A stretch of 37,364 bases of DNA from a virus. Taxonomy: Duplodnaviria; Heunggongvirae; Uroviricota; Caudoviricetes. The DNA is taken from the IMG/VR virus record IMGVR_UViG_2548876853_000021, one strand, 5' to 3'. Shown here in pieces: positions 12,166 through 36,229 of this stretch (the stretch's first letter is position 1; every line of letters starts with the position of its first letter). The notes under the pieces are model-generated. The model ran no database searches, was not told the origin of the DNA, and saw only the letters and a program-made list of their open reading frames with translations. A program made the position numbers and the translations under genes.

Positions 12166-13724
12166 TATGCAGCCCTCACAATATACGCAAATGCCAGGTT
12201 ACGTGGTCTGGTTTCTTTAATTAAAGAGGAGGCATCAGGTGAACTCACTGATTCAGCACCATTTCTTCCACCAGTGGTATAAGTAAAAACTCGCTCACTG
12301 TTAGACCAGTAATCCACACCAACTGTTCTTGCTGATGAAAAAATGGTTTCATCAGATATAACCTGTTCTATTCCATACGGGATATTAGTAACTGACCCCA
12401 CTTTTGTAGGTATTCCATGATTATGAGAAATTACTGCATGCTCTTGATTCGTTAATAAAGTACGACCGCTATCCACTCCACGCCCGTCATCCCAGCCACG
12501 AATAAACTCACCACGTAAATCAGGCAATTTATTTGTCGGGTAAGCCTTTGCCAGTTCCGGGTATGCTTCAGCAGAAAAAGCCGCACCGTTGCATTTCAGC
12601 CAACCTGATGGCGGTGTGGCTGAAGGCCATGGAACAGGCACACCAACAGGTAATGCAGAGCCTTCTCCCAAACCAAGGTATGTGAGAAGACCAGCTACAT
12701 CCTTTCCACTCAAATTGGTAAGCGTATTGTCCAGCGGTTGTTTACCTGCCAGCGCATTAAGCATTGTCGTGGCAAAGTTCGGATCATTCCCCAGTGCCGC
12801 CGCCAGTTCGTTCAGTGTATCCAGTGCAGCAGGTGCAGAACCCACCATTCCTGCAATCGCCGATTTCACAAAAGCCGTAGTGGCAATCTGTGTATTGTTG
12901 ACCGACTGCGCCGCCGTGGGGGCTGTTGGCGTTCCGGTGAGTGCCGGACTCGACAACGGTGCTTTTAGTGCCAGCGCATTGTTAATGGTGGTACTGAAAT
13001 TCGGATCATTGTTAATGGCTGCGGCTATTTCTTTCAGCGTGTCCAGCGTGGCTGGCGCACCATTAATAAGGGCCGTCAGTGCCGCCTGTACAAACGCAGT
13101 GGTCGCAACCTGCGTGGTATTATTCCCCGCCGCTGGCGTTGGCGCTTTGGGGGTTCCGGTAAATGTCGGGCTGGCTTTTGGCGCGTACTGTGAATGCGGG
13201 TCCGGTGCGGCAAGATGTTTTGCCATCTGATCATCCGCGTACACCTTCAGCTCCAGTGCCTTGTCATCCACATACTTGCGGGTTGCCAGCACTACAGCAG
13301 GGTCGATTTTCAGGGTGATATTGTCCGTGCTGCTGGTAATCAGCACCATGCGCACGGTCTGAGTGCGCCCGCTACCTTCAGCCAGTTGCGGCTTATAGCT
13401 TTCCGGGCAGTTGCCCACGGCAATCAATGCCCCGGACTCATCAAACAAGCCCACTTCACGTATCCACCAACCGCCCTCGTTTTCAGGGATCACCTGTTCG
13501 GCAATAATCTGGCTGCTGTTCTGCGGATCGATATAAAGCATATTCAGCGCAGCCCGGCGTTTCTCATTTACCAGTGCCGTCTGCTTTGCGTCCGGCGTTG
13601 GCAATACTCCACTGCCATCGCCCACCGCCATATGGGTAATTTTTAGCGGCACACCGAGCGCGGCGGCGCTGGCAAGTTTCGCCGCGCCAATATCCGTCAG
13701 CAGGGTATAAAATTTTGTGCTCAT
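12165..13724 (-). CDS. H: tail fibre protein H
   Basis: 519 aa; two tandem ~53-aa fibre repeats (aa ~204-330); the variable C-terminal ~165 aa lie inside the invertible segment. Confidence 0.9.
   Translation of the reverse strand: MSTKFYTLLTDIGAAKLASAAALGVPLKITHMAVGDGSGVLPTPDAKQTALVNEKRRAALNMLYIDPQNSSQIIAEQVIPENEGGWWIREVGLFDESGALIAVGNCPESYKPQLAEGSGRTQTVRMVLITSSTDNITLKIDPAVVLATRKYVDDKALELKVYADDQMAKHLAAPDPHSQYAPKASPTFTGTPKAPTPAAGNNTTQVATTAFVQAALTALINGAPATLDTLKEIAAAINNDPNFSTTINNALALKAPLSSPALTGTPTAPTAAQSVNNTQIATTAFVKSAIAGMVGSAPAALDTLNELAAALGNDPNFATTMLNALAGKQPLDNTLTNLSGKDVAGLLTYLGLGEGSALPVGVPVPWPSATPPSGWLKCNGAAFSAEAYPELAKAYPTNKLPDLRGEFIRGWDDGRGVDSGRTLLTNQEHAVISHNHGIPTKVGSVTNIPYGIEQVISDETIFSSARTVGVDYWSNSERVFTYTTGGRNGAESVSSPDASSLIKETRPRNLAFAYIVRAA
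12661..12688. promoter_or_regulatory. invertase recombination site (hix/gix-like), right, inside gene H
   Basis: reverse complement of the 16-bp core at 10779-10794; falls at H codons 350-355 (LGLGEG). Confidence 0.6.
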
Positions 13725-19461: not shown

Positions 19462-20112
19462 TCAGCGGCTGTCATTGCGCAGTCTGCGCTCCAGCTGCTG
19501 TTTGTCTTTTTTCACGCCACAGCGGGGATCGAGCTGTAACGCATGGTTGAGATGATTAAGGGCGGAAGCCGGGTTGCTTTCACTCAGGACAGCGCCAATC
19601 GCTTTATGCAGACGCGCCCGTGACTGGTCCGGCATATCCAGACCGTCTGTCAGCTCCAGCGTCTGCAGCAACAGATCGGCATCAAAGCCGGTGGCGGCAA
19701 GCATTGCGCTCTGCGCCGCATCTGCCATTTCCTCTGCCAGCACGGTCTGCACGTTGCGGTTACCCAGCGGCATCACCCAGCCATGACGCAGGGCATGACG
19801 CCCGATCTCCAGCGCCCCGGCATAATCTCCGGCATCAATGCGCCACAGCATCACGTACATCAGCACGTCATCCTGTTGAGTGCCTCCGGCAGCCAGGACG
19901 CCCTCTGCCCAGGCGGCGTACTTCGGCAGCAGCTCCACCTTTATTTCCGCTTTTTTCACCGTGGACTGAACGCCCTTGAGACGGCGGCGGTCTTCCGCCA
20001 GTTGCAGCAGCATCAGGTCATAGCCCGACGCATGGCGAACACTGCCGCCCTCACGGGCGGCCTGTTCAGCCTGAACGCGCAGGCGATGCTGCCGTGCGGG
20101 ACTCAGGCTCAT
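19462..20112 (-). CDS. M: terminase endonuclease (small) subunit M
   Basis: 216 aa; P2 gpM position between N and L. Confidence 0.8.
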   Translation of the reverse strand: MSLSPARQHRLRVQAEQAAREGGSVRHASGYDLMLLQLAEDRRRLKGVQSTVKKAEIKVELLPKYAAWAEGVLAAGGTQQDDVLMYVMLWRIDAGDYAGALEIGRHALRHGWVMPLGNRNVQTVLAEEMADAAQSAMLAATGFDADLLLQTLELTDGLDMPDQSRARLHKAIGAVLSESNPASALNHLNHALQLDPRCGVKKDKQQLERRLRNDSR

Positions 20113-22166: not shown

Positions 22167-23933
22167 ATGAACACCACACTGACACCCGCAGATCTCGATC
22201 CCCGTCGGCAGGCCATGCTGCTGTACTTTCAGGGATACCGCGTAGCCCGCATTGCTGAAATGCTGGGCGAGAAAGTTGCAACCGTTCACAGCTGGAAAAA
22301 ACGCGACAAGTGGGGTGACTATGGGCCGCTGGATCAGATGCAGCTCACCACCGCCGCACGCTACTGCCAGCTCATCATGAAGGAGCACAAAGAAGGGAAA
22401 GATTTCAAAGAGATTGACCTGCTGGCGCGCCAGTCGGAGCGCCACGCGCGGATCGGCAAGTTTAACAATGGCGGCAACGAAGCCGACTTAAACCCTAACG
22501 TCGCCAACCGCAATAAAGGCCCACGCCGTCAGCCGGAAAAGAATGTTTTCACCGATGAGCAGATTGAGAAGCTGGAAGAAATCTTCCATTCCTCCATGTT
22601 CAACTACCAGCGCCACTGGTGGGAAGCCGGAAAAACCAACCGCATCCGCAACCTGCTGAAGTCACGCCAGATCGGCGCGACCTTTTACTTTGCCCGTGAA
22701 GCCCTGATTGACGCCCTGCTTACCGGACGTAACCAGATTTTCCTTTCCGCCAGCAAGGCACAGGCCCACGTCTTTAAGCAGTACATCATCGACTTCGCCA
22801 AAGAAGTGGGGGTGGAGTTGAAAGGCGATCCGATGGTGCTTCCTAACGGGGCCACGCTTTACTTCCTCGGCACCAATGCCCGCACGGCCCAGAGTTATCA
22901 CGGCAACCTGTATCTGGATGAATATTTCTGGATACCGAAATTCCAGGAGCTGCGCAAAGTGGCTTCCGGTATGGCTATTCACAAAAAATGGCGACAAACC
23001 TATTTTTCCACGCCATCCAGCCTGACACACAGTGCTTATCCGTTCTGGTCCGGTGCGCTGTTCAACCGTGGGCGCAACAAAGCCGATAAGGTGGACATCG
23101 ACCTGTCCCACAACAATCTGGCCCCCGGCCTGCTGTGCGCAGACGGGCAATACCGCCAGATAGTCACCGTGGAAGATGCGGTGCGCGGCGGCTGTAACCT
23201 GTTCGACCTCGACCAGTTGCGCATGGAGTACAGCCCGGACGAATACCAGAACCTGCTGATGTGTGAGTTCGTAGACGATCTCGCGTCCGTGTTCCCGCTC
23301 AGCGAGCTGCAGGCGTGCATGGTGGACAGCTGGGAAGTCTGGACCGACTTTCATGCACTGGCCCTGCGCCCGTTTGGCTGGCGCGAGGTGTGGATCGGTT
23401 ATGACCCGGCAAAAGGTACGCAGAACGGCGACAGTGCCGGATGCGTTGTGGTGGCTCCGCCAGCCGTGCCGGGCGGTAAGTTCCGCATTCTTGAGCGTCA
23501 CCAGTGGCGCGGGATGGACTTCCGCGCCCAGGCGGACGCCATCAAAAAACTGACCGAACAGTACAACGTGACCTATATCGGCATCGACTCGACCGGCGTC
23601 GGTCACGGGGTTTATGAGAACGTGAAAGCGTTCTTTCCTGCCGTCCGGGAGTTTGTCTACAACACCAACGTTAAAAACGCGCTGGTACTCAAGGCCTACG
23701 ACATTATCAGCCACCACCGTCTGGAGTTTGACGCCGGGCACACCGACATTGCGCAATCATTTATGGCAATCCGTCGCGCCACCACCGCCAGCGGCAACCG
23801 CCCGACCTATGAAGCCAGCCGCAGCGAAGAAGCCAGCCACGCCGATCTGGCCTGGGCAACAATGCACGCACTGTTTAACGAACCACTGCAGGGCGAGTCC
23901 GCCAATACAAGTAATATTGTGGAGATTTTTTGA
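22167..23933 (+). CDS. P: terminase large (ATPase) subunit P
   Basis: 588 aa; P2 gpP size and position. Confidence 0.9.
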   Translation: MNTTLTPADLDPRRQAMLLYFQGYRVARIAEMLGEKVATVHSWKKRDKWGDYGPLDQMQLTTAARYCQLIMKEHKEGKDFKEIDLLARQSERHARIGKFNNGGNEADLNPNVANRNKGPRRQPEKNVFTDEQIEKLEEIFHSSMFNYQRHWWEAGKTNRIRNLLKSRQIGATFYFAREALIDALLTGRNQIFLSASKAQAHVFKQYIIDFAKEVGVELKGDPMVLPNGATLYFLGTNARTAQSYHGNLYLDEYFWIPKFQELRKVASGMAIHKKWRQTYFSTPSSLTHSAYPFWSGALFNRGRNKADKVDIDLSHNNLAPGLLCADGQYRQIVTVEDAVRGGCNLFDLDQLRMEYSPDEYQNLLMCEFVDDLASVFPLSELQACMVDSWEVWTDFHALALRPFGWREVWIGYDPAKGTQNGDSAGCVVVAPPAVPGGKFRILERHQWRGMDFRAQADAIKKLTEQYNVTYIGIDSTGVGHGVYENVKAFFPAVREFVYNTNVKNALVLKAYDIISHHRLEFDAGHTDIAQSFMAIRRATTASGNRPTYEASRSEEASHADLAWATMHALFNEPLQGESANTSNIVEIF

Positions 23934-24961
23934 TGGGAAAGAGTAAGAAGAACCGCGCTGCGTCGCAGAACCAGATCCAGCATAAAAGCCAGACTTCAGC
24001 CGAAGCATTCAGCTTCGGCGATCCCATTCCAGTACTGGACCGCCGCGAACTGCTGGACTATGTGGAATGCGTACAGACAGATCGCTGGTATGAGCCGCCA
24101 GTGAGTTTTGACGGACTTGCGCGAACCTTCCGCGCTGCCGTGCATCACAGCTCACCGATTGCAGTAAAGTGCAATATTCTGACCAGCACCTATATCCCTC
24201 ATCCGTTGCTCAGCCCGCAGGCGTTTTCACGTTTTGTGCAGGACTATCTGGTATTTGGTAACGCCTACCTGGAAAAACGCACGAACCGCTTCGGTGAAGT
24301 TATCGCCCTTGAACCTGCCCTGGCAAAATACACCCGACGCGGGTTAGACCTGGATACCTACTGGTTTGTGCAATACGGCATGACCACGCAACCGTATCAG
24401 TTCACGAAAGGCAGCATTTTTCATCTGATGGAACCGGACATCAACCAGGAGATCTACGGCCTGCCCGGTTATCTTTCTGCCATTCCGTCAGCCCTGCTCA
24501 ACGAATCCGCCACGCTGTTCCGCCGCAAGTATTACATTAACGGTAGTCATGCAGGCTTCATCATGTACATGACCGATGCCGCGCAGAACCAGGAGGATGT
24601 GAACAACCTCCGCAACGCGATGAAAAGCGCCAAAGGTCCAGGCAACTTCCGCAACCTGTTTATGTACTCACCTAACGGCAAAAAAGACGGGCTTCAGATC
24701 ATCCCATTGTCAGAAGTCGCGGCGAAGGATGAATTTCTTAACATCAAGAACGTGAGTCGGGATGACATGATGGCAGCGCACCGCGTGCCGCCGCAAATGA
24801 TGGGGATTATGCCGAATAATGTTGGGGGGTTTGGGGATGTGGAGAAGGCGAGCTTGGTCTTTGTTCGTAATGAACTGATTCCTTTACAAAAAAGACTGAT
24901 GGAAGTAAATGTCTGGCTCAATGAAGAAGTGATTGTATTCAATAGATACATTTTAGAGTAA
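23930..24961 (+). CDS. Q: portal protein Q
   Basis: 343 aa; P2 gpQ size; 4-nt overlap with P. Confidence 0.9.
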   Translation: MMGKSKKNRAASQNQIQHKSQTSAEAFSFGDPIPVLDRRELLDYVECVQTDRWYEPPVSFDGLARTFRAAVHHSSPIAVKCNILTSTYIPHPLLSPQAFSRFVQDYLVFGNAYLEKRTNRFGEVIALEPALAKYTRRGLDLDTYWFVQYGMTTQPYQFTKGSIFHLMEPDINQEIYGLPGYLSAIPSALLNESATLFRRKYYINGSHAGFIMYMTDAAQNQEDVNNLRNAMKSAKGPGNFRNLFMYSPNGKKDGLQIIPLSEVAAKDEFLNIKNVSRDDMMAAHRVPPQMMGIMPNNVGGFGDVEKASLVFVRNELIPLQKRLMEVNVWLNEEVIVFNRYILE

Positions 24962-24991: not shown

Positions 24992-26416
24992 TTACTTACG
25001 TGTTTCAACTATATTCAGCCCCTTATAAAGGCTTTGATGGATATATACAGAACCAGTATTTGGCAACATTAAATCAGCATCTTCACATCGGAATCTAGCC
25101 GTACCGGAATTGCCCAACCGGACACCAATCACAGAAGCATTAAATAGAGTTTTCATCAATTCACGAGAAGTATAGCGCTTACAAAGGTCAGGCGCTTTCT
25201 CTTCAATCTTACTGATGAATTCTTCTGTAGAATTATATCTATGCTGCGTCTGACGTAAAGATTCCAATAGCTCACCAAAATGAGGGTAGAGCCTTTTGTA
25301 TTCTTGTTTTAAGTCCTCAACTTTCCAAGCGCTGTACCGTTCTTCAGCTATTCTAATTATATCCTTTTTTATTTCAGAAGCATTAGCATCACAGCGTTTT
25401 TGGCATTCTTGCAAAAACTGAATAACTTCTCTTGGGCGCAAAAATGTGCGCTTCACCAAATAGTTAAACGGTGAAATACTCCCTCTCATTTCACCTTCCT
25501 CAAAAATATCATCTATAGTTATATTTTCCGGCAATCTGGCGTTCACCATATCTTTCAACAACTCTGGTGTCCAGATTATTTCTTCTTCAATTGCCCGGTG
25601 TTTATCTTTATCATCAAATTCCAGCCCTTGATAAATATCAGAGCGTAAAAATGTTACAATATGAATACCTTTGGCTCTAGTATCAGAATAACTATCATTA
25701 ATATCTTTTGTTGCCTTCAACAAGCCAATCAAAAGGCTTTTGGCATCATCCGATCCATCCCAAGAATCATCTAATCGATCAGTGGCAATTAGCACCCCAA
25801 TATCAGTACAAATTTCTTTAAGCTCGTCAAGGATGATTTTTATTATTTGAGGTGTCAATGGTGCTTGCGAAGCATCCCTATTAAACCCCACAGCATATCC
25901 GAAAGCCTCAAAATTGAATGAACTTAATCCCGAGAGTAACTTCCTTGCAGTTCCCAAAGTAGTTGGCGATATACCACCATAGTTATCAAAAACAAATTTT
26001 TTAATTCTAGCAAGGGCCTCCTGAGGTCTTTTCTCTGAAAATTGCCTACCTGACCTAATAATTTCTGCCGCAGCCTCAACAGCTATTGCAAATTTCCAAG
26101 CATTACAATGTGCCTGTTCGGGTAACAACCCTTGCTCTTGATATTGTTTTAATGCTCCCCAAGCATACTGGTCTGGGGTCATGACATTTACGATAACGTC
26201 CTGCCCATATTTTGCTCTTACCAACCTTGGGAGTTGGGTAAAGATGGATGATTTCCCAGCCCCCTTTCTTCCAAGAAAATGGGCACTATAGAAACTCAGA
26301 GCTTGCTCAACTTGAGGAGTATTGATGAAATAATCAGCCAACCTTCTATCAGCTTCAGCATCGACAGTACCAAAGTTGAGTCCCTTAACTGTAAGGCCTA
26401 ACGCATCTAACCGCAC
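24992..26416 (-). CDS. P-loop NTPase of unassigned family (accessory gene between portal and cos)
   Basis: 474 aa; Walker A GRKGAGKS (aa 49-56); Walker B-like IIKIILDE followed by DRLDD; GTG start with AAGGA Shine-Dalgarno; lower GC than flanking structural genes. Confidence 0.75.
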   Translation of the reverse strand: MRLDALGLTVKGLNFGTVDAEADRRLADYFINTPQVEQALSFYSAHFLGRKGAGKSSIFTQLPRLVRAKYGQDVIVNVMTPDQYAWGALKQYQEQGLLPEQAHCNAWKFAIAVEAAAEIIRSGRQFSEKRPQEALARIKKFVFDNYGGISPTTLGTARKLLSGLSSFNFEAFGYAVGFNRDASQAPLTPQIIKIILDELKEICTDIGVLIATDRLDDSWDGSDDAKSLLIGLLKATKDINDSYSDTRAKGIHIVTFLRSDIYQGLEFDDKDKHRAIEEEIIWTPELLKDMVNARLPENITIDDIFEEGEMRGSISPFNYLVKRTFLRPREVIQFLQECQKRCDANASEIKKDIIRIAEERYSAWKVEDLKQEYKRLYPHFGELLESLRQTQHRYNSTEEFISKIEEKAPDLCKRYTSRELMKTLFNASVIGVRLGNSGTARFRCEDADLMLPNTGSVYIHQSLYKGLNIVETRK

Positions 26417-26503
26417 GATAATTCCTTAATTGGTAAACTAAATTTGAACTTGATGCCAACAAAGATAATATCAATTTAATTAAAAAGAAAGCTGTTGCGC
26501 GCG

Positions 26504-26522
26504 CTCGTATCCCCGCCACGCC
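26504..26522. other. putative cos (cohesive end) site
   Basis: cgtatCCCCGCCACGCC resembles, as recalled from memory, the reverse complement of the 186/P2 19-nt cohesive end; lies in the only large non-coding stretch between Q and A. Confidence 0.45.
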
Positions 26523-26553
26523 TGCCCGCTTTATGTAGTAGTTTTCATGCACC

Positions 26554-26654
26554 TGCATGACATGAGCAAAAGCCCGCCAGTTCTGGCATGTCTTAGCCAA
26601 ACCGATCCTCAAACGATCATGCGAACTCATGCAGCATAGACATGCATGACATGA
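26554..26654. repeat. 12-bp direct repeat tgcatgacatga x2 (26554-26565 and 26643-26654) within a CATG-rich tract next to cos
   Basis: exact 12-mer repeated 89 bp apart. Confidence 0.5.
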
Positions 26655-26995
26655 AAATCGGTCAAACCTTGAAACCAGTCATAAATATGAGCCAGCTTAA
26701 TACACACTAAATAGCTGCGTCTAATACTGCTACACCTGCCGTTTACTGACATGTGGCATGTCGCGTAAGGACAACATACTGTAGGCCAGATACAGCAGGA
26801 TCAGGCGAAGAAAACGGCCCCACGCCTTACCCAGCAAGGGCCAAGGGCTAACCGAAAGTGGAGCATTATTCCGCGCAGTTATTTAGTGTCAGCTCTTTTG
26901 AGCTAAAATCAAGTTTCAACATGAGGGTCTGTGCAGGCTTTCTCATCCCGCTAATTTATACAGCACACCTATATGGCTATGAGTTTGTCATGCCC

Positions 26996-27027
26996 GCTAA
27001 TCCTGTTAGGATTAGCCTTGTTTTTTT
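26996..27027 (+). terminator. strong hairpin plus U-tract immediately upstream of the lipoprotein gene
   Basis: gctaatcct-gtt-aggattagc then cttgTTTTTTT; ends 18 nt before the ATG at 27045. Confidence 0.5.
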
Positions 27028-27044
27028 ACGATTGGGATAGGGAT

Positions 27045-27851
27045 ATGAAGAAATTAACTGGCGTAATTGCTTTTGCTCTGCTGCTTACTGCTTGTGACAA
27101 ACCGAAGATCGATGCATCAAGCGATCAGTCGATGAAAGAGTCCATTCAAAAAGTAAGAGAGTCCTTACCTGCAGATAAAAAAGCTCAGTTTGATGATGCA
27201 GTTAAAGTCGTTGCCTTTAGCCAAATCAACATGAGAGAGCTAATGCAGGCTGGAACGTCTTCTGGGGACGTCTACGAAACAAAAATTAAGTCAGCGTTGG
27301 AAGGTAAAACTGGTGATGAGGTTATAAATTACGCACAAACTATTCGCCTTGAGCGTGAGAAGAGAGAGAAAGAACAGGCTCTGCAAGAAATAAAAGAACT
27401 GGAAGCCAAACAAACCTCTGCAACACAGGCTGCGGAAAAAATGAAAGCCTTCAAGGTCGAACGTTCCCGTTTTTATTTCCAGAAAGAGGATTACGGCAAT
27501 GATCAGCCAATTCTGGATATTAGCGTTGAAAACGGAACAGACAAAGCGGTTGCCAGAGTATTCTTCAAAGGAGTTATTGCCAGCCCAGGAAGAAGCGTCC
27601 CTTGGTTCTCTGACGTCTTCAACTATAAAATTTCTGGAGGTCTGGAACCAGGTGAGAAAGCCAACTGGAAATTAGCCCCTAATAGATACTCTGATTGGGG
27701 AAAACTTAAAGTTCCGGCTGATGCTATATTTACCGTCACAGTCATTGGCCTTGAAGACGCAGATGGGAAATCGATCTATGGTGACGCCGAGTTTTCAGAA
27801 CGCGATGCTGACAGACTGAATCAACTTAGAGATAAGTACCTTTCTAAATAA
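27045..27851 (+). CDS. lipoprotein, function unknown (accessory)
   Basis: 268 aa from MKKLTGVIAFALLLTAC (lipobox LLTAC); charged coiled-coil middle region; about 40% GC. Confidence 0.7.
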   Translation: MKKLTGVIAFALLLTACDKPKIDASSDQSMKESIQKVRESLPADKKAQFDDAVKVVAFSQINMRELMQAGTSSGDVYETKIKSALEGKTGDEVINYAQTIRLEREKREKEQALQEIKELEAKQTSATQAAEKMKAFKVERSRFYFQKEDYGNDQPILDISVENGTDKAVARVFFKGVIASPGRSVPWFSDVFNYKISGGLEPGEKANWKLAPNRYSDWGKLKVPADAIFTVTVIGLEDADGKSIYGDAEFSERDADRLNQLRDKYLSK

Positions 27852-28668: not shown

Positions 28669-31083
28669 TTAATACAGGTTCCGCCACTTATCATCTTCCT
28701 GCAAACGCTGGTTCCGATAGAAGATACGCAGGCCTGCTCCTGACGGAATACTGCCACCGCAAAGGAGCAAATCGACCTCTTTCTCGCTGCCATCAAATCC
28801 TCTGGACTTCAGTTCATAGACGAGCTGCTGACGCTGATACTCTGTAATTCGCTGTTTGTAGTCTTTACGCCGTTTCGGTTTAACCAGGCGCAATCTTGCT
28901 GCCAGTTCCCGGCGCTCTTTTTTGCTCATACTGTGCAGGTAATCGTGCAATTCCTTGTCATCCATGCAGGTAATGTCCGTTCTGGTATCCCCATCTGCTG
29001 ATTCATCTTTCTCATGTTGGTTCAAATTTTCAGCAAGGGGACAGTTATTGCCACGAGTCCAAGGGGCGCAAGCGCCCTGGTCGGCTGCCGCCTCCTGAAC
29101 GTCAACGGCTTTACGAACCATTTTCCACTTCACTGCATGAGTGCAGATCTTGCCCTCTGCAATGGGTGACCAGATGCCATAAATACGAATACCGTGATCG
29201 CCATAGGCGGTCGGCTCTTCGTTGATTTCATAAGCGGTTCTGATGAGGTGATATTTACGGGGAACCAGTACGCCGCCCTGCTTCATGATGTAGGAGGCAA
29301 AGCAACCAGCATCAGCTGCAGCCAGAATGGCATCAAGGCGCGGGTTATCCAGTACCGGCGCACCTGCTTTTTTGTCACCCTGTTGCCTTGCCGCCTGACC
29401 AGCCAACAATCGCAGTTCACGGTAAGCCTGACGCCCCGGAATGCCAAAGAAGCGGAATTGCTGAACACGATGCAGAGACGCCCAGGCATTAACGTATTCA
29501 GCGTTATCACGCAGAGATTTCCCCGTTTCCTTGCTGATCTCGCCAGCCAGACCACGCCCGTCAATGTTCTTACTGATGTATTTCGCGATATAGCTTGTTG
29601 GCGTACCTTTGCGCGGGTTAATCAACTCAGACTTAAAGCGCGGCCCAGTGTTATTGCCCAGCTCCTCGCGGTCTTCACGGATGGCAAACTTACGCAGTAA
29701 TGCAGTGATGGCGCGGCGGTCTTTTTTGCGCATAAAACACAACAGGTGCCAGTGAACTGTACCGTCATGATGCGGCTCAGCCACCCGCACGCCATACCAG
29801 CGCAATCCGGCTTTGTGCATCGCCTTACGAAATGCAGCAAACATGCCGACCAGATAATCACTACTTTGTCTTACCGTCGCATTTGTCCAGGTTGGGTTGG
29901 ACCTGCCGTTATTTAGCGTGGAATGGAAACGTGACGGACAGGTGATGGTGTAGAAAACGGCGCAGTCACCGCGCATTTCCGCGATAAGCTCCAGACCTTT
30001 AACACAGGCCATCATCTCATTGCGGCGATGCGCAGGGTTGCTGCTGCTGGCGTTTACCACATCCTCCATGTCCAGCGTGTCGCCGTCTTCGTTCACCAGT
30101 TCATGAGAACGGAAAAACTCCAGCGACTTACGGCGCTGCTCACGTTTATGCATCACGGCTTCATAGCTGACATAAGGAGATGCTTTTTTGCTGACCAGGC
30201 AGACAGCGCGCAACTGCTCTTCCCGCCATTCGCAACGCATCTTCCATAATTTCCGATACCACCAGTCGGCGCACAACATACGCGCCAGCGAACCCGGAAT
30301 GAGTTCATAGGGCACGGGTTTACGGCGGTTTCTTTTCCAGCGGAGTTGCTCAAACGCAGGTGGGATGACATCCAGACGCAGGGTTTCCGCTGCCACCTTT
30401 TCCCATGTCTTGCGGATTTCTTCTGGCTTAACATCATCGGTGGCGTACAAATCACCACAAGCGGCATCAAGACACATGCTCATATGCGCAGCGACAAGAG
30501 TAGACAGGCGTTTCACCTGATCCTGACTCATTTCAGGCAGGATCAGCAGGCCGTCCAGCCCTTCATGGCTTGCCATAAAGCGAAAAGAAGTGGATAGCTG
30601 ACTGTCGCGTACATGCTCCAGTCGTTCCAGACATGGCTTAATCGTCTCACGCAAATAGCGGGAATAAGCCTTTGGCCTGCCCAGGCTGCTGAAGTATTCA
30701 ATACGTTGCATCAGCGGCTTGCTGATATGGGAAGACTGGGCGTTTACGTCCGCCAGAATGACCATGTCTGGATTAAAACGCTGCTGCTCATGCGCCAGCT
30801 TTGCCCGGCTAATGAGCTTATCCTGCTCCATTTCGCGCTGGACAGGATCACGGGATTCATTAAAGAAATAACGCTCCCAGACCTGCTCACTCAGTGCCTC
30901 GCGGCGCAGTTGTTCCTGTTCGTTATCGGCAGCGTACAGAGTGATCAGGTTTGAAAGTGCAGACTCCGGCGCAACTTCCGCCGGATCCAGATAAGGGTTA
31001 ATGGCCTTTTTCGGGCCGTTCCATGAAAATGATGCAGCGGCCTCGTTAAAGCCGCTAGAGTTGCTCATATCGTCATGACTCAT
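28669..31083 (-). CDS. A: replication initiation protein A (rolling-circle initiator)
   Basis: 804 aa; P2/186 gpA size and position; ATGA overlap with the upstream dam stop. Confidence 0.9.
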
Positions 31084-31937
31084 ACACGCACCTCGTACAC
31101 AGCAGAACTATCCACGCCACGCGAAGGATCAAATCCCACCCAGCAGCGCGCCCCAGAAACAGCAATGATTTCTGTTGCAGATTTACTCTCGCCAGCCGAC
31201 ACGCCGATGCTGCGTTTTGCCTTGATGTAGTGGTGAGTAAAATTGCGATACAGCGAACGGATCAGGGATGTGTCACTGTTAGAAACAATGACCGGATGTC
31301 CTTCTGATGACCGATGTTCAAGAACAGATGCCAGGTGATACTGGTCATCTTCAGTGAAGCCGTCAGTGTGATAGCCGGAAAACGTACCGTCATACGGCGG
31401 ATCGCAATACACCACATCCCCCGCCTTCAACATCGCCAGCGTTTCATCAAAGCTGGCGCAGATAAACGTTGCTCGCTGGGCCTTTTCTGCAAATGCGCGA
31501 ATTTCTTTTTCAGGGAAATACGGATTTTTATAATTACCGTAGGGAATGTTGAAATGCCCGCTCTTGTTATAGCGACATAAACCACGGTAACCGTGACGAT
31601 TGAGATACAGGAAATATACCGCTTTCATGAAATCAGTAATTTCAGTTGAGTAATTAAACTCCTGCCTTATGTTGTAATAAGTCACCTCCCTGTTTGCTTC
31701 CTCAAATAAAGCTCTGGCGCGAGATATAAACGATTCACAATCAGCGGCAACCTTTTTATAGAGGTTGATTAAATCAGGATTAATATCCGCAACCAGATAG
31801 CTGGGATAATCCGTCTCCATCATCACAGCACAGGAACCCGCGAAAGGTTCAACCAGTCGCGGGCCAGCAGGAAGATGTTTTTTCAGTTCGGACATTATGG
31901 CAGTTTTATTTCCCGCCCATTTCAGGATGGTGCTCAT
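31080..31937 (-). CDS. dam: DNA adenine methyltransferase (Dam-like)
   Basis: about 285 aa from [11 protein letters not shown]; motifs EPFAGS (AdoMet binding) and DPPY (catalytic). Confidence 0.85.
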
Positions 31938-32161
31938 ACAGCACCTCCGTTGTAATGTTTGCCTTTCAGCTCTGCGATTTCCTGACAGGTAATGCAAAGC
32001 TGCACCCCCGGAATGGCACGGCGGCGTGCTGGCGGAATTGGCGCTTCACACTCAATGCAAAGCACGCGGGACACGCCCGGTGTTTTGGCGCGGGCAGCAC
32101 GGATATGACGCTGGCGTTCTTCTTCAACGCGCTGCTGTACGAGATCCATTGCATCAGCCAT
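31934..32161 (-). CDS. DksA/TraR-family C4 zinc-finger protein
   Basis: 75 aa; CIEC-x17-CITC. Confidence 0.75.
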   Translation of the reverse strand: MADAMDLVQQRVEEERQRHIRAARAKTPGVSRVLCIECEAPIPPARRRAIPGVQLCITCQEIAELKGKHYNGGAV

Positions 32162-33224: not shown

Positions 33225-33734
33225 TCACAGCAAACCGAATGAAGCACCGAGGCCAGTCACGGTATCAACTGCACTCGCCATCGCAGGATTAGCCTGTAAA
33301 CGGGCCTGCAATGAAACAGCCGCCAGCGCCATCAGTCGTGTTACAGAATTAATGCTGCTGATCGCATCGCGACGGCCTGCACTGGTTTTTACATCGCCAG
33401 AAACCGCACCTGCAGCAACACGCCCGATCTCTGCGGTTGCACTCATGACGTAATGTGGCAGTCTCTCTTTTGCCACCTCATTTACCGGTATACATGGCAG
33501 GCAGTGAATCTGAGCCAGAAATCCATCAACCAGTGTTGGGTCTTCAGTGAGATCGGTTAACTGCCAGATATCTGACGCAGTAAGTTGGTGTGGTTGTTCC
33601 GGGTTGAGCTTGTTACGCAAGGTTTGAACGTTCATACCTGCGCGCTCTGCCAGCTTCGCCATGTTGTGTCGTAGGGCGAAGGCCCGGCAGGCTTCATTGA
33701 AATGGGGATGTTTTGAAATGCGATAGTCAAACAT
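33225..33734 (-). CDS. cII: CII-like regulatory protein (186 CII type)
   Basis: 169 aa, same length as 186 CII; second gene of the lytic operon after apl. Confidence 0.75.
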   Translation of the reverse strand: MFDYRISKHPHFNEACRAFALRHNMAKLAERAGMNVQTLRNKLNPEQPHQLTASDIWQLTDLTEDPTLVDGFLAQIHCLPCIPVNEVAKERLPHYVMSATAEIGRVAAGAVSGDVKTSAGRRDAISSINSVTRLMALAAVSLQARLQANPAMASAVDTVTGLGASFGLL

Positions 33735-34886: not shown

Positions 34887-34897
34887 GGTTGCTTCAT

Positions 34898-36229
34898 ATG
34901 AATAATGATATGACTTTTGAAAACAGAGATGAGTATAATAGAAAAATCATTGCTGAAAAAATAATAAGCTTACTCGAGTCCCCCTTAAAAATATCCCCTA
35001 TTGTTATCGATGGGGACTGGGGTACCGGTAAAACCGAATTTTCAAAAAAATTAGCGGCATTGATTGAAAAAAATGAATCTGGGCATAAAGTAGTATATAT
35101 TGATGCATTTACTGAAGATCATAATGATGCTCCCATACTTACTATAATGGCTGCAATAGTTGCATTATATCCAGAGAGTGAAAAGAAGGAATTAATATCA
35201 AAGGCATTACCAGCATTGAGATTTGGACTTAAAACTGTACTCAAAGCTGGCGCTGGGTGGATTTTAAAACAAAATGCAGATGATATTGCGGATGAATTCG
35301 AAGATGCTATTAAAGATGCGGCTAACTCAGCTATAGATGGTACTGTAGAAGCACTGCTTGATGATCATATTGAAGCAAAGAAACATTTGCTTGCTCTCAA
35401 GGAAGTACTTGCTGAACTAACTAGCGAAAATAAAATAACAATTATCATTGACGAACTTGACCGTTGTAAACCAAGCTTTGCCATCTCTATCATCGAAAAT
35501 ATAAAACATGTTTTTGACACTGAAAATCTTAACTTCTTGTTAGTTGCTAACATCTCACAATTGAAAGCATCAATAAATCATATTTACGGTGCAGGTGTTG
35601 ACTCAGAAAGATATCTTGATAAATTTATAAAATTCACTTACAGCCTGCCAGTGACTTTCACTGAAAACAATTACGATAAAATTTTGGCTTCGAACTCTCA
35701 TTTTAGAATGCTATGTAACGAGTCTGAAAGACTAAAAGAAATTGGAGAAAGTAGTATTCATATAGTTCAAAAATTTATCGAACTAAAAGGCTTGTCGCTA
35801 CGGGAAGTTGAAACCTTATCAAGATATCTAGAAATTTATCAAATTTTATCTCAAAATGAAATCAGCAATAAATTTATACCAGGCTATTGCTGTTATCGAA
35901 CCCTTGCAGTAATTCTTTATTCGTTTGGTCGTGAACTGGCCCTTAACTACGTAGAAGATAAAATAGATGCACAATTAATAATCAATTTCTTCGGTGTTAA
36001 TAGACTCCCATATCAGACAGATCAATATAACATCAACATCTACTATTATGCATTATTTGGTATAACTTATAAATATATGCCAGAAGGTTCTCCTTTACTT
36101 CCTTCTGAAAACGATGAAAAAAACAGATGGGCTGAAATAAGTGATTATCATATTTTAAAAGGAAATGCAGGTGTAGAAGACCCTGTTAGAATATTCAAAA
36201 ACACCTTAAAAGTTTTCTTGCTCCAATGA
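34898..36229 (+). CDS. KAP-family P-loop NTPase
   Basis: 443 aa; Walker A GDWGTGKT and Walker B IIIDELDRC typical of KAP NTPases; Shine-Dalgarno overlaps the stop of the upstream small ORF; AT-rich. Confidence 0.8.
   Translation: MNNDMTFENRDEYNRKIIAEKIISLLESPLKISPIVIDGDWGTGKTEFSKKLAALIEKNESGHKVVYIDAFTEDHNDAPILTIMAAIVALYPESEKKELISKALPALRFGLKTVLKAGAGWILKQNADDIADEFEDAIKDAANSAIDGTVEALLDDHIEAKKHLLALKEVLAELTSENKITIIIDELDRCKPSFAISIIENIKHVFDTENLNFLLVANISQLKASINHIYGAGVDSERYLDKFIKFTYSLPVTFTENNYDKILASNSHFRMLCNESERLKEIGESSIHIVQKFIELKGLSLREVETLSRYLEIYQILSQNEISNKFIPGYCCYRTLAVILYSFGRELALNYVEDKIDAQLIINFFGVNRLPYQTDQYNINIYYYALFGITYKYMPEGSPLLPSENDEKNRWAEISDYHILKGNAGVEDPVRIFKNTLKVFLLQ

Follow-up and report, generated by a model that had tools for sequence, protein, structure and literature searches.

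The stretch of DNA analysed here (IMG/VR virus record IMGVR_UViG_2548876853_000021, 37,364 nt, called the window below) is a complete P2-like prophage. Matches to protein families identified the capsid protein N, the scaffold O, gpL, a CI repressor and an integrase, together with the terminase, portal and replication genes listed in Table 1. Outside the cos region, the window shared ~96% identity with Klebsiella P2-like phages, ST512-KPC3phi13.2 among them. Two cargo genes flank the site. The left one encodes a 474-aa P-loop ATPase of the Sll1717 family whose translation contains the Walker A motif GRKGAGKS; it scored above the cut-off of its NCBIfam model and gave no match in Pfam or PADLOC. 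The right one encodes a DUF6694 protein and occupies the position of old/tin in P2. No PADLOC match pointed to the cargo as a defence system. Similarity of the cargo to an NCBIfam 'anti-phage protein' model was far below threshold (24.9 bits, where the model demands 370).

Table 1. Packaging, cargo and cos features of the window (positions and strand refer to the 37,364-nt stretch).
Feature	Position	Strand	Basis or remark
Small terminase gene (gpM homologue), presumed TGCAT reader	19462-20112	-	PF05944 Phage_term_smal, E 2e-40
Large terminase gene (gpP homologue), presumed cos nuclease	22167-23933	+	Pfam Terminase_5, Terminase_6N, Terminase_6C (PF06056, PF03237, PF17289)
Portal gene Q (gpQ homologue)	23930-24961	+	Pfam Phage_portal; aligned to Klebsiella P2-like portal genes
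Left cargo gene, P-loop ATPase, Sll1717 family	24992-26416	-	NCBIfam NF047389, E 3.5e-84
Whole conserved cos unit (150 bp), spanning -124 to +25 from the top-strand cut	26497-26646	-	Column conservation
CGCGCGC flank, Q side of the cut, last conserved cos bases	26497-26503	-	
Predicted 19-nt 5'-protruding cohesive end, GGCGTGGCGGGGATACGAG	26504-26522	-	Homology to SEN8, Fels-2, 186, P2
ATAAAGCGGGCA flank, right-arm side of the cut	26523-26532	-	
Proximal motif TGCATGAAAAC at -29, start of the published 55-bp core	26541-26551	-	
Inverted half-site CATGCA at -37; forms CATGCAggTGCATG with the proximal motif	26554-26559	-	
12-mer TGCATGACATGA, proximal copy	26554-26565	+	
Remnant of a G+C-rich inverted repeat with T-run (terminator-like hairpin), cos spacer	26575-26588	-	
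Distal array, spacing 13 + 10 bp	26618-26646	-	
Distal motif TGCATG at -124	26641-26646	-	
Distal motif TGCATG at -111	26628-26633	-	
Distal motif cGCATG at -101	26618-26623	-	
12-mer TGCATGACATGA, distal copy, straddling the right cos edge	26643-26654	+	4 nt within cos, the other 8 nt in the cargo-side flank
Right cargo gene, encoding a DUF6694 protein; reads outward from cos	26973-27851	+	PF20404, E 4e-22; phrog_7468
Replication protein gpA	28669-31083		

A first-pass annotation, made from the sequence alone, had placed a putative cos site within 26417-26700 and proposed that it was displaced about 1.5 kb from Q by an NTPase gene. The distance from the end of Q (24961) to the cohesive end (26504) is indeed 1,543 bp, with the P-loop ATPase gene lying between, while in the records of P2 and 186 the portal gene lies ~170 bp from cos. 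Cargo between cos and Q was also present in Fels-2 (a 565-aa ORF), ST512-KPC3phi13.2 (a 481-aa ORF) and SEN8 (two ORFs), and these three phages share the order gpA - DinI - cargo - cos - cargo - Q. The 1.5-kb interval is thus a swappable cargo cassette in a known cos-adjacent hotspot. A cargo hotspot of P2-like phages has been described (Rousset et al. 2022, PMC9122126), and for cargo in the cos-Q interval PMC5694545 cites Nakayama 1999 (ctx of phiCTX) and Dodd & Egan 1996. As in that hotspot, unrelated cassettes lie on both sides of cos between gpA and gpQ, with breakpoints at the cos edges.

The cohesive end and the cos core

The plus strand at 26500-26530 reads cgcgctcgtatccccgccacgcctgcccgc, and the reverse complement from 26522 to 26504 reads GGCGTGGCGGGGATACGAG. 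This 19-mer was identical (19/19) to the feature 'putative cos site' at positions 1-19 of SEN8, and to the same site in Fels-2, ST512-KPC3phi13.2, Yersinia phage MLG42 and ST437-OXA245phi4.1. For the group of P2, 186, PSP3 and P4, the comparison ends were those annotated in NC_001895, NC_001317 and NC_005340. Positions 1-19 of P2 (GGCGAGGCGGGGAAAGCAC) and of 186 (NC_001317, GGCGTGGCGGGGAAAGCAT) are both annotated as cohesive ends; the window 19-mer matched them at 14/19 and 15/19 positions, respectively. The first-pass annotation had recognised 26504-26522 as resembling the reverse complement of the 186/P2 end, and this was correct. The string it quoted, cgtatCCCCGCCACGCC, sits at 26506-26522 within the full 19-nt homologue, and the 186 end it gave equals the database entry.

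GGCGTGGCGGGGATACGAG has been named as the cos site in the genome paper of Salmonella phage SEN8 (PMC5427200). Using blastn, the deposited records of SEN8 and EtG were found to end exactly at the predicted cut, on the base before it, and that of Smp131 to begin there. The ends of SEN8 and Smp131, which carry this variant, were set by comparison with other phages ('putative', 'by analogy') rather than by end sequencing.

Cos regions of the P2 family have a conserved core of 55 bp (PMC5694545, PMC3931495). In the window it corresponds to 26497-26551, and it aligned without gaps to Fels-2 (54/55 identical), SEN8 (53/55), 186 (43/55), P4 (42/55) and P2 (41/55). The alignment with P2, 186 and related phages proposed as a check on the first-pass call therefore showed clear similarity, 41-54/55 over a gapless core. 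On the Q side of the cut, (T/C)GCGCGC was present in 10/10 aligned cos cores, and GCGCGC reached at least 80% in the consensus of 98 dereplicated regions. On the right-arm side, AAGCGGGC(A/G) was common to most of the ten cores; P2 (GAAGCGGGCG) and 186 (AAAGTGGGCA) each depart from it by a single base.

The region combines a 19-nt G+C-rich end starting GGCG(A/T)GGCGGGG, the 55-bp core, a location between gpA and Q, and the cognate terminase genes in the same prophage. Judged by these features, 26497-26646 is almost certainly a cos site of the P2 family.

The terminase of P2 introduces staggered nicks that leave 19-nt 5' overhangs, as is also annotated in the records of P2 and 186. After excision and replication of the present prophage, its own terminase (gpM + gpP) would act on cos. 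gpP would nick twice, 19 nt apart, between 26523 and 26522 on the minus strand and between 26504 and 26503 on the plus strand, and virion DNA would then bear 5'-protruding ends of GGCGTGGCGGGGATACGAG and its complement. Cleavage of this phage at these bonds is what we infer from homology.

A 150-bp conserved unit bounded by cargo

For comparison, 118 cos loci of P2/P4 type were collected from IMG/VR by a pattern spanning the cut and dereplicated to 98 regions. Among 23 dereplicated regions with the same 19-mer, column conservation was 0.8-1.0 from -124 to +25 and 0.37-0.47 outside. The boundaries were sharp: the conserved box opens exactly at the first distal TGCATG and closes exactly at CGCGCGC. 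Searching 50,697 phage records with blastn, we found 26492-26646 to be the only conserved island, with 87-92% identity in 82 records and unrelated flanks. Conservation ends 7 bp beyond the cohesive end, so that no separate cosQ-like element is visible on the Q side.

The left edge is also a breakpoint between cargo cassettes. One related region (L082) followed the window collinearly from 34884 and left it precisely at 26497; it then carried a different 1.9-kb cassette and rejoined the window in the 3' end of Q. Eleven contigs shared this cos, and in them CGCGCGC was directly followed by no fewer than eight unrelated sequences. Replacement of cargo thus amounts to a natural deletion analysis, in which the 150-bp box is kept whole and all that lies beyond it can be exchanged.

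Inside the box, the spacer between the proximal and distal elements has its own features. Close relatives carry a hairpin GCCCGCCAGnnCTGGCGGGC followed by TTTT, with folding energies of -22 to -23.6 kcal/mol (z -4.8 and -5.8). The corresponding window hairpin had -9.4 kcal/mol (z -0.8) and a detected stem of 5 bp; three substitutions weaken it and create one extra CATG. The degraded hairpin could in principle affect function. The spacer is of the Fels-2 type and has two conserved GATC sites, at 26604-26607 and 26615-26618. The prophage encodes a D12-class adenine methyltransferase. An 81-aa ORF across cos (26385-26630, minus strand) was judged spurious: it gave no Pfam match, and the conservation box does not track it. 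Some relatives do have small 'hypothetical proteins' annotated across cos.

The degraded hairpin, together with one base of the 55-bp core that departs from the consensus, might be taken as signs that the site is a dead relic in a defective prophage, no longer cut or packaged. We consider this very unlikely. Neither the 19-mer nor its two flanks show damage, and every TGCAT motif is intact at its consensus position. The genes for head, terminase, tail, replication, repressor and integrase all appear as full-length ORFs with strong family matches, in a prophage ~96% identical to Klebsiella phage records. P2 lacks the spacer hairpin altogether, which shows that cos can function without it.

The TGCAT array and the 12-mer pair

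The first-pass annotation had described a CATG-rich tract, and nine CATG do occur in 26546-26665, against a window average of 3.8/kb (~0.46 per 120 bp) and at most three in any other 120-bp stretch. This tract was largely a family-wide array of phased TGCAT(G/T) motifs lying wholly on the right-arm side of the cut. In a cut-anchored alignment of relatives, the proximal element immediately right of the cut was CATGCAnnTGCAT(G/T)AAAAC, and the distal cluster consisted of two or three TGCAT(G/T). The same architecture was seen in nearly all of the phages aligned, among them P2, 186, P4, PSP3, SEN8, Fels-2, ENT90 and pro483.

The positions of these motifs are conserved across most of the family. 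TGCAT starts exactly at -29 in 96/98 dereplicated regions, and ATGCA falls in the -40 bin in 63/98. The inverted half-site occurs in 186, PSP3, ENT90 and phages of the Fels-2 group. Between -130 and -101, three successive 10-bp bins held 74, 75 and 56 TGCAT, and the -30 bin 96; all other bins of the 300-bp span held 0-10 each, mostly 0-5. Successive distal motifs were spaced by 10 bp 107 times and by 13 bp 54 times. The distance from the first distal motif to the proximal motif was 95 bp, or about nine helical turns, in 57/95 regions. The window has the modal layout. The distal array is not universal, since it is missing from some members of the family: Aeromonas LPM4 has three copies of GGATC in its place, and another region (L020) has none. 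All six Psu-linked satellite loci carried the distal motif in triplicate; the proximal motif was single in five of them and double in the sixth. P4 likewise carries the array.

The first-pass annotation had emphasised an exact 12-mer, TGCATGACATGA, occurring twice in this tract. Both copies are where it had placed them. The pair extends to 20 nt at 85% identity with a spacing of 89 bp, and 0.28 exact 12-mer pairs within 150 bp are expected per window by chance; at least one arose in 22% of Markov simulations. A second such pair lies at 12977/13007. Significance of the 12-mer pair on its own was therefore rejected, and the significance of the site rests instead on the clustering of CATG/TGCAT and on the comparison with other phages. 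The pair was found in 1/98 dereplicated regions (L082). A direct scan found the window's junction in ten IMG/VR contigs, near-identical through cos and the right flank; among species-representative genomes the distal junction had 0 matches.

The proximal copy is one substitution from TTATGTCATGCA (minus strand), a variant common in relatives. Two other contigs (L156 and L157) carry DUF6694 cargo 93% identical to that of the window and share its distal junction with an ordinary proximal site, which indicates that the outer part of the distal 12-mer travels with the DUF6694 cargo. The exact match of the two 12-mers is most simply explained as incidental, arising from two sites that both contain TGCA and from a chance or junction-related extension. 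The suggestion that the repeats and CATG palindromes are terminase recognition or accessory-factor sites thus held in part: the phased TGCAT motif holds matching positions in P2, 186, P4 and the 98 regions, while the 12-mer is confined to one haplotype.

A functional 12-mer, serving as a lineage-specific accessory-factor site or as extra terminase sites that strengthen packaging, nevertheless has several observations in its favour. The window has nine CATG in -135 to -20, where the other 97 dereplicated regions have a mode of five and a maximum of six. The four extra CATG all lie within GACATG/CATGTC hexamers, six of which are found in 26559-26762 out of 28 in the 37-kb window. One hexamer, an inverted copy of GCATGTCT, was created by the same three substitutions that destroy the hairpin, and the haplotype is almost unchanged in 11 contigs. 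Those 11 contigs are near-identical and give no independent evidence of selection. The pair is within chance expectation and rare in the family, 8/12 bases of the distal copy lie beyond the conserved box and move with the DUF6694 cargo, and the proximal copy is a single substitution from the common variant. We regard this explanation as improbable. The idea that the extra GACATG sites belong to the DUF6694 cargo was also rejected: the distal junction moves with the cargo, but the palindrome at 26748-26762, the proximal site and the hairpin site do not.

As for its function, the TGCAT array is probably the recognition site of the small terminase gpM. P4-like satellites carry the array and share with P2 only packaging by the P2 terminase, which is the chief reason to see a packaging signal here instead of a transcriptional element and makes a gpM site the most likely reading. 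The -29 copy with its inverted partner at -37 and the three distal copies would serve site recognition; an oligomeric small terminase would bind or wrap the array and place the gpP nuclease on the cut, a cosB-like role. A full-text literature search returned nothing relevant on a gpM footprint or a TGCAT motif at cos; Ziermann & Calendar 1990 and the 1993 P4 review were outside its scope.

The array could instead be a transcriptional or host-factor element beside a true cos core of 55 bp (26497-26551), for example an outward promoter or operator of the adjacent cargo, or a nucleoid-protein site. The published conserved core is merely 55 bp long (PMC5694545, PMC3931495). The right cargo gene of the window is, like old, transcribed away from cos, and the P2 old-tin mRNA starts at 33424 and 33426, ~-150 from the cut, with its -35 region within the distal array. 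The position and phasing of the array, by contrast, stay the same whichever cargo lies beside it and whichever way that cargo points. Cargo transcribed towards cos is found in Fels-2 and ST512-KPC3phi13.2, and in P4 and the six P4-like satellite loci the array stands beside the 3' end of psu, with nothing to transcribe outward. Natural replacement of cargo has always kept the array, and the conserved box begins at its first TGCATG. Longer cos flanks raised cosmid transduction more than 10,000-fold (PMC9594776), which also speaks against this reading. No sigma-70-like promoter for either cargo gene was found on either strand of 26497-26700. A transcriptional or host-factor element is thus unlikely to account for the array. 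The overlap of the old promoter with the motifs is specific to P2, where the distal motifs could have a second role, because the old-tin start lies at ~-150 and its promoter overlaps them.

Relation to known cos systems

The window cos is closest to the SEN8/Fels-2 type, with which it has in common the 19-mer, the 150-bp box, the placing of the TGCATG motifs and a gene order that continues through Q - P. It differs in its cargo genes, in the degraded hairpin and in the four extra CATG that make the 12-mer pair. Compared with the cos sites of P2, 186, PSP3 and P4 (Ziermann & Calendar 1990, as cited in later work), it has the same G+C-rich start of the 19-nt end, the same two flanks, a proximal TGCAT at -29, three distal motifs at about -123, -111 and -101, and a portal-side position. 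In contrast, the window end finishes ATACGAG rather than AAAGCA(C/T), core identity is 41-44/55, and the spacer is unrelated, containing the GATC pair and the hairpin remnant. A 1.4-kb gene also intervenes between cos and Q, which lies ~170 bp from cos in P2, 186 and PSP3.

The packaging substrate of P2 is a monomeric circle and not a concatemer. The likeness to the lambda cos (cosQ-cosN-cosB) would be one of plan: a partly symmetric nick site with a one-sided array of ~100 bp, presumed to hold small-terminase sites. There is no sequence relationship between the two. By homology the window ends are 19 nt long, against 12 nt in lambda, and the small terminase of the window matches only PF05944 (P2 type) and not the Nu1 type.

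Taken together, the locus is very probably the cos site of a complete P2-like prophage of the Fels-2/Kapieceevirus type, with a TGCAT array that its terminase probably reads. A broader proposal combines several steps: that the array is the gpM site of the whole P2/P4 family, that cargo swaps delimit the minimal cos to 150 bp, and that the four extra GACATG-borne CATG, gained partly at the terminator's expense, could tune packaging or the competition with P4-like satellites for the same terminase. As a whole we offer it tentatively, as possible but rather doubtful.

The cos type, its 19-mer and the cos-adjacent hotspot have all been described before, and current understanding is unchanged. The present analysis adds the exact boundaries of the site, shows that the conserved unit is TGCAT and not the 12-mer, and finds that the cargo breakpoints coincide with the cos edges. 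For the prophage, the cos call places the predicted genome ends and confirms a complete packaging module, and it marks the genes flanking cos as swappable cargo rather than core phage genes. For the family, the 150-bp box and the TGCAT positions give a base-precise P2/P4 packaging signal, of use for P2/P4 cosmids, transducing particles and maps of terminase binding.

Cargo junction at the edge of cos

The cos region of the window, the predicted packaging site, and its right flank are shared almost base for base by eleven contigs (among them L082 and L139-L147). Directly past CGCGCGC, which forms the edge of cos facing the portal gene Q, at least eight unrelated sequences were found among these same eleven contigs. 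The Q-side cargo cassettes thus break exactly at the cos edge, which is 26496/26497 in the window. The cargo carried at this place by the prophage is a P-loop ATPase gene of the Sll1717 family. Its product had no match in Pfam or PADLOC, and an 'anti-phage protein' model of NCBIfam scored against it only below threshold. The gene is a candidate uncharacterised defence gene within a known defence hotspot.

Features of the prophage at and outside cos (positions in the window)
Feature	Coordinates	Strand	Remark
Sll1717-family P-loop ATPase gene	24992-26416		cargo between cos and Q
81-aa ORF	26385-26630	minus	spans cos
Terminator-like hairpin	26575-26588		within cos; degraded in the window haplotype
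D12-class N6-adenine methyltransferase gene	31080-31997		encoded by the prophage
KAP-family P-loop NTPase gene	34889-36229		between CI repressor and integrase

Hairpin, repeats and reading frame at cos

The Fels-2-type relatives have a strong hairpin in cos (−22 to −23.6 kcal/mol), against −9.4 kcal/mol in the window haplotype, where it is degraded by three clustered substitutions. As a result of the same three substitutions, GCATGTCT also occurs there in inverted orientation. GACATG/CATGTC hexamers occur six times within 204 bp (26559-26762), compared with 28 times in the whole 37-kb window, and the perfect palindrome GACATGtggCATGTC on the cargo-side flank (26748-26762) is counted among the six. 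Relative to other cos regions there is a surplus of four CATG, all of which lie inside these hexamers. Apart from the pair at cos, the window has only one 12-mer that recurs exactly within 150 bp, CATTGTTAATGG (12977-12988 and 13007-13018), which is located in the tail-fibre region. In the Fels-2-type group, the spacer within cos has two conserved GATC sites (26604-26618 in the window), and the prophage encodes a D12-class methyltransferase.

Short 'hypothetical proteins' are annotated at the same place over cos as the 81-aa ORF in Yersinia phage MLG42 and Klebsiella phage ST437-OXA245phi4.1. The ORF is probably an annotation artefact, because no family match was found for it and the pattern of conservation tracks the cos box, not the ORF.

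Variants of cos in other phages

The P2-like Aeromonas phage LPM4 keeps the proximal TGCATG and lacks the distal TGCAT, in place of which three GGATC-containing repeats are found at about −130 to −85 from the cos cut. Judged from this replacement, LPM4 may have a different small-terminase specificity. The record of Escherichia phage 500465-1 gives GGCGTGCGGGGATACGAG at cos. One G is missing here from GGCGTGGCGGGG, which is invariant elsewhere; either the record contains a sequencing error or the cos of this phage is defective.

A second cargo position

Contig L082, which is otherwise collinear with the window, does not contain the KAP-family NTPase gene and has about 100 bp in its stead. The position of this gene is a second cargo hotspot of the same prophage.
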